A stretch of DNA of 64,000 nucleotides, from assembly GCF_053078305.1 (NCBI RefSeq), contig NZ_CP166879.1; one strand, 5' to 3'. The position numbers are program-made. Of the stretch, positions 49,001 through 53,265 are shown piece by piece. Numbering within the stretch: the first letter of the stretch is position 1; each line of letters begins with the position of its first letter.

Positions 49001-52000
49001 TCTGCATCTCTGCTTTGCATACCTGCCGATGTTATACCCATCTCGGCGCTTCTCAGGATTCAAGAGCTGGTTACAGTTACTGAGGACTGAACAAGGGCGC
49101 TCTTGTAAAAACAAGAGTTTTCTCGTGGTTTCGCCGAACTGTCACACTTACGTTCGGTTATGTGCTTAATAATGTTATGAAAAAGAAACCGGTTGCGCAG
49201 TTGGAGCGTCAGCATTCACTGCTGGAAAATCCATGTGCTTATGGGTTGTTATCGCAGTTCCAGGCTGCGATAGTCGTTAACTGTTTTACACTTAATAAAA
49301 TAATTTGAGGTTCGCTATGTCTGACGACATGTCTATGGGTTTGCCTTCGTCAGCGGGCGAACACGGTGTACTACGCTCCATGCAGGAGGTTGCAATGAGC
49401 TCCCAGGAAGCCAGCAAGATGCTGCGTACTTACAATATTGCCTGGTGGGGCAATAACTACTATGACGTTAACGAGCTGGGCCACATCAGCGTGTGCCCGG
49501 ACCCGGACGTCCCGGAAGCTCGCGTCGATCTCGCGCAGTTAGTGAAAACTCGTGAAGCACAGGGCCAGCGTCTGCCTGCACTGTTCTGTTTCCCACAGAT
49601 CCTGCAGCACCGTTTGCGTTCCATTAACGCCGCGTTCAAACGTGCGCGGGAATCCTACGGCTATAACGGCGATTACTTCCTTGTTTATCCGATCAAAGTT
49701 AACCAGCACCGTCGCGTGATTGAGTCCCTGATTCATTCGGGCGAACCGCTGGGTCTGGAAGCCGGTTCCAAAGCCGAGTTGATGGCAGTGCTGGCACATG
49801 CTGGCATGACCCGTAGCGTCATCGTCTGCAACGGTTATAAAGACCGCGAATATATCCGCCTGGCATTAATTGGCGAGAAGATGGGGCACAAGGTCTATCT
49901 GGTCATTGAGAAGATGTCAGAAATCGCCATTGTGCTGGATGAAGCAGAACGTCTGAATGTCGTTCCTCGTCTGGGCGTGCGTGCACGTCTGGCTTCGCAG
50001 GGCTCGGGTAAATGGCAGTCTTCCGGCGGGGAAAAATCGAAGTTCGGCCTGGCTGCGACTCAGGTACTGCAACTGGTTGAAACCCTGCGTGAAGCCGGGC
50101 GTCTCGACAGCCTGCAACTACTGCACTTCCACCTCGGTTCGCAGATGGCGAATATTCGCGATATCGCCACGGGCGTTCGTGAATCCGCGCGTTTCTATGT
50201 GGAACTGCACAAGCTGGGCGTCAATATTCAGTGCTTCGACGTCGGCGGCGGTCTGGGCGTGGACTATGAAGGCACCCGTTCGCAGTCTGACTGCTCCGTA
50301 AACTATGGCCTCAATGAATACGCCAACAACATCATCTGGGCGATTGGTGATGCGTGTGAAGAAAACGGTCTGCCGCATCCGACGGTAATCACTGAATCGG
50401 GTCGTGCAGTGACTGCGCATCACACCGTGCTGGTGTCTAATATCATCGGCGTGGAACGTAACGAATACACGGTGCCGACCGCGCCTGCAGAAGATGCGCC
50501 GCGCGCGCTGCAAAGCATGTGGGAAACCTGGCAGGAGATGCACGAACCGGGAACTCGCCGTTCTCTGCGTGAATGGTTACACGACAGTCAGATGGATCTG
50601 CACGACATTCATATCGGCTACTCTTCCGGCACCTTTAGCCTGCAAGAACGTGCATGGGCTGAGCAGCTTTATTTGAGCATGTGCCATGAAGTGCAAAAGC
50701 AGCTGGATCCGCAAAACCGTGCTCACCGTCCGATTATCGACGAGCTGCAGGAACGTATGGCGGACAAAATGTACGTCAACTTCTCGCTGTTCCAGTCGAT
50801 GCCGGATGCGTGGGGGATCGACCAGTTGTTCCCGGTTCTGCCGCTGGAAGGGCTGGATCAAGTGCCGGAACGCCGCGCTGTGCTGCTGGATATTACCTGT
50901 GACTCTGACGGTGCTATCGACCACTATATCGATGGTGATGGTATTGCCACGACAATGCCTATGCCGGAGTACGATCCAGAGAATCCGCCGATGCTCGGTT
51001 TCTTTATGGTCGGCGCATATCAGGAGATCCTCGGCAACATGCACAACCTGTTCGGTGATACCGAAGCGGTTGACGTGTTCGTCTTCCCTGACGGTAGTGT
51101 AGAAGTGGAACTGTCTGACGAAGGCGATACCGTGGCGGACATGCTGCAATATGTACAGCTCGATCCGAAAACGCTGCTAACTCAGTTCCGTGATCAAGTG
51201 AAGAAAACCGATCTTGATGCTGAACTGCAACAACAGTTCCTTGAAGAGTTCGAGGCAGGTTTGTACGGTTATACCTATCTTGAAGATGAATAATTAAGAT
51301 TATTCCGCTGGCGGGTCGATTTATTTACGTAAATCGGCCCGCTTTCTTTTTATATATTCTTAAAAATAATTTAGCTGCTTTTCTTATTAAATAATCTCCC
51401 TACAATCGCTGCATTAATTAAATGCAGAGGGAACGGTTATGAAAAAATGGAAAGTACGTAGCGCGTTGATAGCATTAGTCGTGCTGCTGGTCGGTTGTTC
51501 CAGTAATGCGCAGTATAATAGCAGTGCATCGGGCAATGTCGGCACCGCCTGGGGTGGGGATGTGCACTCATCGGTTCAGGGCGTATCTGCTGAACGAGCC
51601 TGGCGCGATCCTGCAGAGATGATCGTTATTAGTTATTCGACTAATGTTCCTTCCGGCTACGACCGCGTTTATAGCATTCGTATTAACGAACTGGAATATG
51701 CTATTCGCGATGGTAATTTTAATTCTCTACCTATTACGCGGGCTTATGATTCATCCAATAATGAACCACGCTATATTGTCCACGCCAGAGTCGGAATGAA
51801 TTATCAATTATATGTTCGTAATTACAGTCGTAACACCAACTACGAGATCGTTGCTACGGTTGATGGCCTGGATGTGCTGAACGGCAAGCAAGGTTCGCTG
51901 AATAACAACGGCTATATTGTGAATGCCGGAGATTCGTTAGCGATTAAAGGATTCCGCAAAGATAAACATACCGAAGCGGCTTTTCAGTTCGCCAACGTTG

Positions 52001-53265
52001 TTGATTCCTACGCAGCCAATTCGGCGCAGGGCGATGTGCGTAATACCGGGGTAATCGGCTTTGCCGCCTTTGAATTACAAGGCCCGGCGCAAAACGCGCT
52101 GCCACCGTGCTCTGGACAAGCTTTTCCAGCAGATAACAATGGCTATGCGCCGCCACCGTGTCGGAAATAGCAACCTCGCTTGATGCCTCGCCCATTTAAG
52201 GCGATAATTAGCACAAACTTGTGTTTCGCAAATCCAACCCTTCCTCGTCGGGCCTAACGACGCGGAAGGGTTTTTTTATATCGACTTTGTAATAGGAGTC
52301 CATCCATGAGCACCTTAGGTCATCAATACGATAACTCACTGGTTTCCAATGCCTTTGGTTTTTTACGCCTGCCGATGAACTTCCAGCCGTATGACAGCGA
52401 TGCTGACTGGGTGATTACTGGTGTGCCGTTCGATATGGCCACTTCTGGTCGTGCGGGGGGACGCCACGGCCCGGCAGCTATCCGTCAGGTTTCGACTAAC
52501 CTGGCCTGGGAACACAACCGCTTCCCGTGGAATTTCGACATGCGCGAGCGTCTGAACGTGGTGGACTGCGGCGATCTGGTATATGCCTTCGGCGATGCCC
52601 GTGAGATGAGCGAAAAACTGCAGGCACACGCCGAGAAGCTGCTGGCTGCCGGTAAGCGTATGCTCTCCTTCGGTGGTGACCACTTTGTTACGTTGCCGCT
52701 GCTGCGTGCACATGCGAAGCATTTCGGCAAAATGGCGCTGGTACACTTTGATGCCCACACCGATACCTACGCTAACGGTTGTGAATTTGACCACGGCACC
52801 ATGTTCTATACCGCGCCGAAAGAAGGTCTGATCGACCCGAATCATTCCGTGCAGATTGGTATTCGTACCGAATTTGATAAAGACAACGGCTTTACCGTGC
52901 TGGACGCCTGCCAGGTGAACGATCGCAGCGTGGATGACGTTATCGCCCAGGTGAAACAAATTGTGGGTGATATGCCGGTTTACCTGACCTTTGATATCGA
53001 CTGCCTGGATCCTGCATTTGCGCCGGGAACCGGTACGCCGGTAATTGGCGGTCTGACCTCCGATCGCGCTATTAAACTGGTACGCGGCCTGAAAGATCTC
53101 AACATCGTTGGGATGGACGTAGTGGAAGTGGCTCCGGCATACGATCAGTCGGAAATCACCGCTCTGGCAGCGGCAACGCTGGCGCTGGAAATGCTGTATA
53201 TTCAGGCGGCGAAAAAGGGCGAGTAAGCACCAGATGCGATGCGCACGGGTAAAACGTGCCATTAA

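Follow-up and report, generated by a model that had tools for sequence, protein, structure and literature searches.

The gene that separates speA from speB in the window, by which we mean the whole 64,000-nucleotide stretch of DNA analysed here, is already known at this site as an annotated lipoprotein gene of Escherichia coli O157:H7 Sakai. ECs_3813 of that strain (NP_311840.1, 'lipoprotein') is this gene, likewise located between speB and speA, and the RefSeq proteins WP_000758914.1 and WP_000758915.1, together with the Salmonella, Klebsiella and Citrobacter orthologues, are also products of this gene. RefSeq names them 'lipoprotein' or 'hypothetical protein'. Identity to the window protein is 97–98% within E. 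coli and 61–75% in other genera. Comparison with ECs_3813 and the orthologues revealed no substantive difference, so that the window carries an ordinary allele and the finding is an ordinary one. Literature searches by locus tag and topic retrieved no study of the gene, and neither did a full-text search with the Sakai tag and with presumed tags for EDL933, LT2, CFT073 and SL1344.

Among described proteins, outer-membrane lipoproteins that carry a globular periplasmic domain on a tether, such as LpoB, offer an analogy. The window protein appears to share with them a lipobox, a residue other than Asp at position +2, a disordered linker and a compact domain, but no similarity in sequence or fold was detected. 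For the beta domain itself, fungal DUF7918 proteins and MATH/TRAF-like beta-sandwiches were considered for comparison.

The speA–speB interval of the window measures 1,012 nt (speA end 51293, speB start 52306). The corresponding gap in K-12 is 137 bp, as is also given in PMC8674398. Both values agree with the original prediction, which had put the distances at about 1 kb and about 140 bp, and the 243-residue reading frame with an LVGC lipobox that it had placed in the gap was confirmed. The only neighbours of this gene in the window are speA and speB. The speA product shares 95–99.7% amino acid identity with orthologues of other genera, and the speB protein (WP_000105566.1) is the same in gene-bearing and K-12-type genomes. 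The features of the locus are as follows.

49317–51293, plus strand: speA, biosynthetic arginine decarboxylase, the upstream neighbour (open reading frame; annotated speA in matching genomes)
51294–52228, no strand assigned: segment of 935 nt swapped for an unrelated 60-mer in K-12-type genomes
51310–51353, plus strand: predicted intrinsic terminator of speA, with a 15-bp stem (51310–51343), a 4-nt loop and a T-rich tail (scan and fold)
51375–51406, plus strand: candidate promoter of the lipoprotein gene, putative in function, with a -10-like TACAAT at 51401–51406 and a weak, T-rich -35 region
51409–51432, plus strand: 5'-UTR hairpin CTGCAT/ATGCAG (51409–51427) and Shine-Dalgarno AGAGGGA (51426–51432), read from the sequence
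51439–52170, plus strand: lipoprotein gene, 243 amino acids (open reading frame and homologue alignment)
52180–52208, plus strand: speB promoter-like site TTGATG-17-GATAAT, starting 10 nt past the lipoprotein stop codon (sigma-70 scan)
52236–52279, plus strand: terminator-like hairpin with U7, separated from the speB ATG by 26 nt (fold, inverted repeat and conservation)
52306–53226, plus strand: speB, agmatinase, the downstream neighbour (open reading frame; annotation in matching genomes)

We compared the interval across 5,426 complete E. coli genomes. Two haplotypes were found, which are mutually exclusive and single-copy. The gene lies between speA and speB in 3,550 genomes (65%), including O157 Sakai and IAI1, and a K-12-type allele is present in 1,867 (34%), including K-12 and BL21. 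The K-12-like genomes lack the gene at this site and carry the 60-mer instead.

The original prediction had described the gene as an accessory one inserted into a polyamine locus. On such a reading the gene would have been gained horizontally and K-12 would retain the original state. Its absence from K-12 and a third of E. coli genomes fits that reading, as does its GC content (about 0.43–0.51), which is somewhat below that of the flanks, and a 63%-identical copy is found near a transposase in an accessory-looking region of Citrobacter sp. 18056. However, the other Escherichia species and cryptic clades that were examined all have the gene at this site, and so do about ten further enterobacterial genera. 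The order speA–gene–speB is kept in cryptic Escherichia clades, E. whittamii, Citrobacter, Klebsiella, Kluyvera, Intestinirhabdus, Phytobacter, Kosakonia, Entomohabitans and Enterobacter sp. The E. albertii copy sits immediately before speB, where the contig ends, and that of Salmonella comes immediately after speA; at the level of the protein alone, a member of the same cluster is reported from E. fergusonii.

Rates of evolution also argue against insertion. Within Escherichia, dS of the gene (0.30–0.38) matches that of speA and speB (0.22–0.35), and dN/dS is 0.07–0.16 from within E. coli out to Klebsiella, as under purifying selection. The borders of the segment have no target-site duplications, terminal direct or inverted repeats, integrase or other mobility genes, or tRNA target, in keeping with the predicted lack of a mobile-element signature. 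Furthermore, the speA terminator that lies inside the supposed insert is itself conserved across genera, with an equivalent hairpin following speA in Salmonella, Citrobacter, Klebsiella, Kluyvera, Kosakonia and others. Because the gene occupies the same site in outgroups, has such dN/dS values, shows dS like that of its flanks and lacks signs of mobility, it is very probably an ancestral, vertically inherited resident of the enterobacterial speA–speB interval, and the K-12 type a derived loss. Horizontal gain of the gene is highly unlikely, and with it the accessory interpretation falls on the outgroup evidence, even though its presence varies among E. coli genomes.

Loss from a third of E. 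coli genomes could also mean that the gene is a decaying or non-functional remnant that lineages shed freely. It is interrupted by IS1 in strain 23CRST038 and truncated in Shigella dysenteriae and in a cluster of 448 members. Against decay stand the dN/dS values, a 243-residue frame that is intact in thousands of genomes (the cluster holding this form has 4,753 member sequences), and strongly conserved motifs that the family shares across alpha-, beta- and gamma-proteobacteria. We consider a remnant extremely unlikely. The ancestral reading implies caution in using K-12 as a reference, in that most E. coli and their relatives have an extra gene between speA and speB and the familiar short gap would be the derived state.

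The structure of the K-12 allele is not that of a simple deletion. Homology between K-12 and the window ends at the speA stop codon and picks up again at CAAATCC (52229), and the intervening 935 bp, which span the speA terminator, the lipoprotein gene itself and the speB promoter region in its gene-bearing form, are swapped for an unrelated 60-mer with the sequence GTCCTGTGTTACTTGAATCCGCTTAATTTAGCGGTGATAATCCGCCACAATTTATTGTGA. A simple deletion does not account for this 60-mer. We considered whether it derives from the replaced segment, for example from the lipoprotein promoter region, with which it shares TAATTTAGC, and rejected this origin; the similarity is within shuffled controls (Smith-Waterman score 18, compared with 16.9 +/- 2.0 for shuffles). 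A search for a donor, which covered every fetched locus, other parts of E. coli genomes and metagenome contigs, returned the 60-mer only at E. coli speA–speB junctions. SNP density in the flanks is normal. The 60-mer carries TTGAAT-17-GATAAT, which has the same spacing and nearly the same hexamers as the promoter-like site upstream of speB in the window. The K-12 allele lacks the speA terminator and keeps the downstream hairpin.

These observations suggest the following history. The ancestral order would have been speA with a terminator of its own, then an AT-rich spacer holding a weak promoter, then the lipoprotein gene, followed by the promoter of speB, a conserved leader hairpin and speB. 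In the K-12-type allele, everything from the speA terminator through the lipoprotein gene to the old speB promoter would have been exchanged for the 60-bp patch, which would recreate a speB promoter at an equal distance from the hairpin.

The protein encoded by the gene begins MKKWKVRSALIALVVLLVGC, followed by SS, and has a recognizable signal peptide, with a basic n-region (MKKWKVR) and a hydrophobic h-region (SALIALVVLLVG) read from the translation. The lipobox L-V-G-C occupies residues 17–20 and satisfies the pattern [LVI][ASTVI][GAS]C that marks bacterial lipoproteins, the substrates of Lgt, LspA and Lnt. Its cysteine, Cys20 (codon 51496–51498), is conserved in at least 90% of 100 homologues. 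Position +2 is Ser (Ser21, Ser22). By the established +2 rule, lipoproteins with a residue other than Asp at this position are sorted to the outer membrane in a Lol-dependent manner, and Ser21/Ser22 thus predict this destination for the window protein. The protein would be exported by Sec, lipidated at Cys20, cleaved by signal peptidase II and delivered to the outer membrane through Lol.

Past Cys20, about 12 linker residues lead to an all-beta globular domain at approximately residues 31–215, after which comes a Pro-rich tail with a conserved AFPAD..YAPPPC. The AF2 model is all-beta with a mean pLDDT of 85, and the acidic residues E136, D142 and D145 are invariant in the domain. We infer that this compact beta-sandwich faces the periplasm on its short tether; surface exposure is a conceivable alternative. 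In some relatives the linker reaches 100–160 residues. We examined such long N-terminal extensions as possible informative fused domains and rejected them, since they are low-complexity linkers only.

Homology searches placed the protein in no known family. Searches of Pfam, NCBIfam, PHROGs, PADLOC and PDB sequences with the lipoprotein and 100 homologues returned no significant match, as the original prediction of a protein with no recognizable domain had anticipated, and neither a Pfam model nor a solved structural relative of the family was found. Because the protein has no catalytic signature, it would most likely serve envelope upkeep by binding or scaffolding, and would be dispensable in the laboratory. 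The family is large, with 4,122 representatives at 50% identity, and the two main laboratory strains lack it, so that envelope biologists could reasonably take it up. A more far-reaching proposal is that this is a new, widespread proteobacterial family of outer-membrane lipoproteins with a new beta-sandwich fold and an envelope function, and that a foreign 60-bp patch alters speA–speB coupling in K-12. We regard this combined proposal as tentative and rather doubtful. If it were true, the envelope function would have escaped notice through the absence of the gene from K-12 and BL21, and the patch would measurably change the transcriptional coupling of speA and speB between E. coli lineages.

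We extended the analysis to the gene neighbourhoods of 80 loci from species-representative genomes. Naive ORF calling proved unreliable in high-GC genomes owing to antisense ORFs, and called genes were used for Variovorax. Only the Enterobacteriaceae orthologues flank speA or speB; about 50 loci of other taxa do not, and no conserved gene partner of the family was found outside Enterobacteriaceae among the 80 loci. Homologues lie within the his operon in Variovorax, beside metJ in Providencia and beside thrS in Gilliamella, and Acinetobacter has them in tandem.

Downstream of the Variovorax homologue lies a small gene whose Pfam match to Rap1a, a type VI secretion immunity family, is weak. Another reading is that of a stand-alone gene for envelope defence, the product being an immunity protein against a type VI amidase or an inhibitor of lysozyme or protease. 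A periplasmic lipoprotein with a beta-sandwich is a common inhibitor format, and dN of the gene is about ten times that of its neighbours. However, the small genes that lie downstream in Variovorax and in Acinetobacter have no relationship to one another, no effector genes lie nearby in the loci examined, PADLOC reported 0 families, and neither Pfam nor NCBIfam gave an immunity or inhibitor match for the lipoprotein (Rap1a, MliC/PliC, Ivy and similar). The gene is also single-copy, broadly conserved and found in housekeeping contexts, unlike typical immunity genes. We therefore judge a defence role to be very improbable.

Turning to transcription, both hairpins of the interval have the form of predicted rho-independent terminators, with a stable GC-rich stem-loop followed by a U-tract. 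The first, after speA, has a folding energy of -23.4 kcal/mol (z = -4.5), with TTTCTTTTT. The second has arms at 52236–52250 and 52258–52272 followed by T7, and folds with -24.4 kcal/mol (z = -4.0); the terminator scan overlooked it owing to an internal mismatch and it was recovered by folding. In ten taxa, 14 of its pairs are paired throughout and two pairs show compensatory changes. The two good terminators that had been predicted thus both fold, but they are not a pair belonging to the gene. The second is identical in K-12 and lies past the promoter-like site of speB, whose hexamers and spacing also recur past the lipoprotein stop codon in other genera. This hairpin would end lipoprotein transcripts while sitting in the presumed speB leader. 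It resembles leader-region attenuators in being a GC-rich hairpin with a U-tract between a promoter-like site and a start codon, but differs from them in that the analysis revealed neither an alternative antiterminator pairing nor a leader peptide, and Rfam returned no family.

The region upstream of the gene is AT-rich, as predicted, with a GC content of 0.36–0.38 over 51200–51499 compared with 0.52–0.58 in speA. The further claim that the gene has its own promoter is only plausible. A TAC(A/T)nT element keeps its place, about 35 nt before the ATG, from genus to genus, and orthologous regions have a purine-rich, Shine-Dalgarno-like stretch before the ATG, but a sigma-70 consensus scan found no plus-strand promoter upstream of the gene.

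This arrangement bears on whether the lipoprotein is coupled to polyamine metabolism, for example by binding or exporting agmatine or putrescine in the envelope, and is kept in place for co-regulation. Enterobacteriaceae stably keep the gene in synteny with speA and speB, no terminator separates the gene from the speB promoter, so that read-through into speB is possible, and the domain has the three invariant acidic residues. Trabulsiella has a 44% paralogue two genes from speG. However, a strong terminator stands between speA and the gene, the arginine decarboxylase pathway runs in K-12 and BL21 without the gene, and homologues outside Enterobacteriaceae never adjoin polyamine genes in the loci examined. 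The protein also shows no similarity to PotD/PotF-type binding proteins or any Pfam family, and its model is an all-beta sandwich. A polyamine link is not supported, and we consider it improbable; the place of the gene in a polyamine locus would instead reflect lineage-specific gene order and not shared function.

The haplotypes nevertheless differ in what separates the two polyamine genes. Gene-bearing strains have two terminators and 1 kb between speA and speB, and K-12-type strains have one hairpin. As the spacers and the speB promoter sequences differ between haplotypes, polyamine-gene regulation as described in K-12 may not transfer exactly to other strains. An Rfam search of the interval returned no known RNA family; the matches lay only downstream of speB, where they correspond to REP/naRNA4-like repeats.

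The original prediction placed a 243-aa lipoprotein ORF with an LVGC lipobox between speA and speB, and the positions that it gave for the interval between these two genes match the sequence. Its figure for the K-12 gap (about 140 bp) was also correct, as sequence comparison gives a speA-speB gap of 137 bp in MG1655, the figure given in PMC8674398. The window carries the following features at this locus.

51293, last nucleotide of the speA stop codon; speA is the upstream neighbour of the lipoprotein gene
51310-51343, stem followed by a T-run; intrinsic speA terminator (-23.4 kcal/mol, z = -4.5; pattern scan and fold)
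51439-52170, + strand, lipoprotein gene; 243-aa ORF between speA and speB
52180-52305, presumed speB leader region, in which the promoter-like site TTGATG-17-GATAAT lies 5' of the second hairpin
52236-52279, second hairpin plus T7, just 5' of speB (-24.4 kcal/mol, z = -4.0; fold and repeat finder)
52306, ATG of speB, the downstream neighbour of the lipoprotein gene

An internal mismatch hid the second hairpin from the pattern scanner. Upstream of the lipoprotein ORF the sequence is AT-rich, as predicted (GC 0.36-0.38).

We assessed how the two forms of the locus are distributed by using the interval as a megablast query against 5426 complete E. coli genomes. The full gene-bearing interval is found in 3550 genomes, against 1867 with the K-12 junction, which is always single and always at the speA-speB site. 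The few remaining genomes have strain-specific rearrangements; 23CRST038, for example, shows a truncation associated with IS1, and HT-948 is rearranged on a larger scale. Among the gene-bearing strains are O157:H7 Sakai (ECs_3813, annotated 'lipoprotein'), IAI1 and O111:H8, O145:H28, ST131 and APEC O2:K1 strains, and the short form occurs in K-12, BL21(DE3) and C41. Truncated proteins of about 174-181 aa are frequent in one 448-member cluster (P0025; locus L114) and among the AFDB entries from Shigella dysenteriae. They probably reflect IS disruption or contig ends, so that Shigella-type lineages would be undergoing a separate loss of the gene.

The gene had been regarded as an accessory insertion, with K-12 representing the original state. 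However, the order speA-lipoprotein gene-speB is also present in two cryptic Escherichia clades, E. whittamii, several Citrobacter and Klebsiella species, Kluyvera, Intestinirhabdus, Phytobacter, Kosakonia, Entomohabitans and one Enterobacter sp. In E. albertii the contig begins inside the lipoprotein gene and speB follows directly, in Salmonella the gene lies 3' of speA, with a GntR-regulator island after it, and for E. fergusonii a protein of the same 90% cluster is on record. Amino acid identity drops in the order expected, from 94-98% in Escherichia through 72-75% in Salmonella, Citrobacter and most Klebsiella species (61% in K. aerogenes) and 66% in Kluyvera to 58% in Kosakonia and Phytobacter. 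The gene has a dN/dS of 0.07-0.16 and, within Escherichia, a dS (0.30-0.38) that matches that of speA/speB (0.22-0.35), with a dN about ten times theirs. A repeat search found no direct or inverted repeats at the segment borders and there are no mobility genes, in agreement with the predicted lack of a mobile-element signature. The speA terminator forms part of the 'extra' DNA, and it too is conserved across genera. Together, these observations identify speA-lipoprotein gene-speB as the ancestral order and the short gap of K-12 as the derived one. The insertion hypothesis is thus the wrong way round, and is contradicted by the outgroup synteny and by a dS equal to that of the flanks. The lipoprotein gene is intact, under selection and vertically inherited.

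We also observed further variation next to the locus. In some E. coli (IAI1, L095/L096; 23CRST038, L092), loiP and speB are separated by a D-glucosaminate (dga/dagR) PTS island that is absent from the window and K-12, making this a second variable spot. The Salmonella island between the lipoprotein gene and speB, composed of the GntR regulator and dehydrogenases, is unlike it. In the window, three REP-type palindromic repeats lie between speB and loiP (53256-53523; Rfam naRNA4/CssrE-like, below gathering score).

Homology between K-12 and the window stops exactly at the speA stop codon and restarts at CAAATCC (window 52229), with 935 nt between these breakpoints in the window (51294-52228) and 60 nt in K-12 (L001, 1595-1654). 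On this alignment the K-12 allele is a replacement and not a clean deletion. Nowhere along the 935 nt does similarity to the 60-mer rise above that of shuffled controls (Smith-Waterman score, 18 versus 16.9 +/- 2.0). The 60-mer also has no match in the other fetched loci and, in E. coli genomes, occurs only at the speA-speB junction of the 1867 genomes. A metagenome scan with a 23-nt core of it brought up nothing but E. coli speA-speB junctions (97-100% identity to K-12 over 3.3 kb); in some of these contigs the flanks differ from K-12 by 2-3%. SNP density in the flanks is ordinary, and the final 19 nt of speA contain two synonymous differences that are possibly the trace of a short imported tract. 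The replacement deprives K-12 of the speA terminator and gives it a different speB promoter sequence: the 60-mer holds TTGAAT-17-GATAAT, at a distance from the downstream hairpin within one base of that of TTGATG-17-GATAAT in the gene-bearing allele.

The lipoprotein gene was predicted to have its own promoter and to be bracketed by two good terminators. A consensus promoter scan upstream of the gene found none, but a -10-like TACAAT (51401-51406, about 35 nt before the ATG) keeps its position from genus to genus, paired with no more than a weak, T-rich -35. Between it and the start codon are a small hairpin (51409-51427) and a good Shine-Dalgarno sequence. This makes a candidate promoter of its own plausible. 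Both terminators fold stably, but the downstream one belongs with speB. Across genera, a promoter-like cTTGAa-17-GATAAT comes after the lipoprotein stop codon within about 10-15 nt, and a hairpin with a U-tract lies some 25-35 nt beyond it, ahead of the speB ribosome-binding site. In Escherichia, Citrobacter, Klebsiella, Kluyvera, Enterobacter sp. and Entomohabitans the hairpin sequence is almost unchanged. All 14 pairs form in 10 taxa, two of the pairs showing compensatory changes, and the K-12 hairpin is identical, so it did not come with the lipoprotein gene. The hairpin and U7 end 26 nt before the speB ATG, presumably within the speB leader. Szumanski and Boyle, in 1990, reportedly placed a speB-specific promoter upstream of speB. 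The hairpin, which matches no Rfam family, is predicted to terminate lipoprotein transcripts and, in K-12, speA transcripts, and could be an attenuator of speB. The lipoprotein gene is a separate unit, with the speA terminator on one side and the speB promoter and hairpin on the other. In Phytobacter and Kosakonia the place of this hairpin is taken by a different one, and in Citrobacter freundii (L007, about 5790-5925) and C. gillenii (L015) an insert of ~130 nt with internal inverted symmetry, which resembles an ERIC/IRU-type element, separates the promoter-like site from the conserved hairpin.

The lipoprotein N-terminus (MKKWKVRSALIALVVLLVGC followed by SS) combines a basic n-region and a hydrophobic core with a textbook L-V-G-C lipobox; aligning 100 homologues shows at least 90% conservation of its Cys. 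Consistent with the predicted absence of a recognisable domain, neither the query nor any of these homologues matched Pfam, NCBIfam, PHROG, PADLOC or PDB sequences. A profile search of 1.84 billion cluster representatives returned 4122 relatives, 3200 of them at E <= 1e-10, with named members in gamma-, beta- and alpha-proteobacteria and the myxobacterium Chondromyces, almost all of them annotated as 'lipoprotein', 'outer membrane lipoprotein' or 'uncharacterised'. Conserved motifs include LGTxWG, YE(I/V)VATVDGLDVLxGKxGS, IxGFRK, AAFxF, YAANS..GD.RNxGVIG and a C-terminal AFPAD..YAPPP, with an additional Cys pair in the tail in Enterobacterales; the longer N-termini of some relatives are only low-complexity Pro/Ala/Ser linkers. 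The model that AlphaFold2 built on the alignment is all-beta and confidently predicted (mean pLDDT 85, >90 for most of residues 31-210), and the lipid anchor leads into a disordered linker.

By established rules the protein would be exported by Sec and processed by Lgt, LspA and Lnt at Cys20, and, with Ser at +2, it is predicted to be sorted to the outer membrane by the Lol pathway. There a beta-sandwich that would face the periplasm may act as a binding or scaffold module in envelope upkeep. The lipoprotein is non-essential, because K-12 and BL21 are without the gene. A functional tie to polyamines is not supported, because the linkage is confined to one family and the strong terminator isolates the gene from speA. 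The gene is in most E. coli genomes and has been publicly annotated for many years as a genome feature. The locus merits some attention for two reasons: the 60-bp replacement in K-12, for which no donor was found in the sequences searched, and a sizeable 'dark' lipoprotein family missing from standard laboratory strains.

Among the loci examined outside Enterobacteriaceae, we found no conserved gene neighbour. In Variovorax the homologue lies in the his operon between hisD-type (histidinol-dehydrogenase) and hisC-type (aminotransferase) genes (L009, 6001-7205), followed by a 122-aa gene with a weak Pfam match to Rap1a (T6SS immunity). Other Comamonadaceae loci likewise have it within the histidine operon, another family slot inside a housekeeping operon. 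The Providencia homologue is between metJ and an outer-membrane-protein gene, and that of Gilliamella has neighbours that we take to be thrS and recO. Acinetobacter has two tandem paralogues (A. baumannii, L085 4841-6612; also L059, L067, L071 and L087), which adjoin an sbcC-like gene; most of these loci also encode a small secreted protein next to the paralogues. Extra copies were seen in Trabulsiella guamensis, where a 44% paralogue (L032, 5851-6609) lies between ynfD-like and ynfC-like genes, two genes from speG, and in Citrobacter sp. 18056, where a 63% copy (L020, 5971-6732) lies in an accessory-looking region with a transposase-like ORF. An identical contig sequence is filed under a 'Chryseobacterium' label (L021), pointing to mislabelling or contamination of an assembly.
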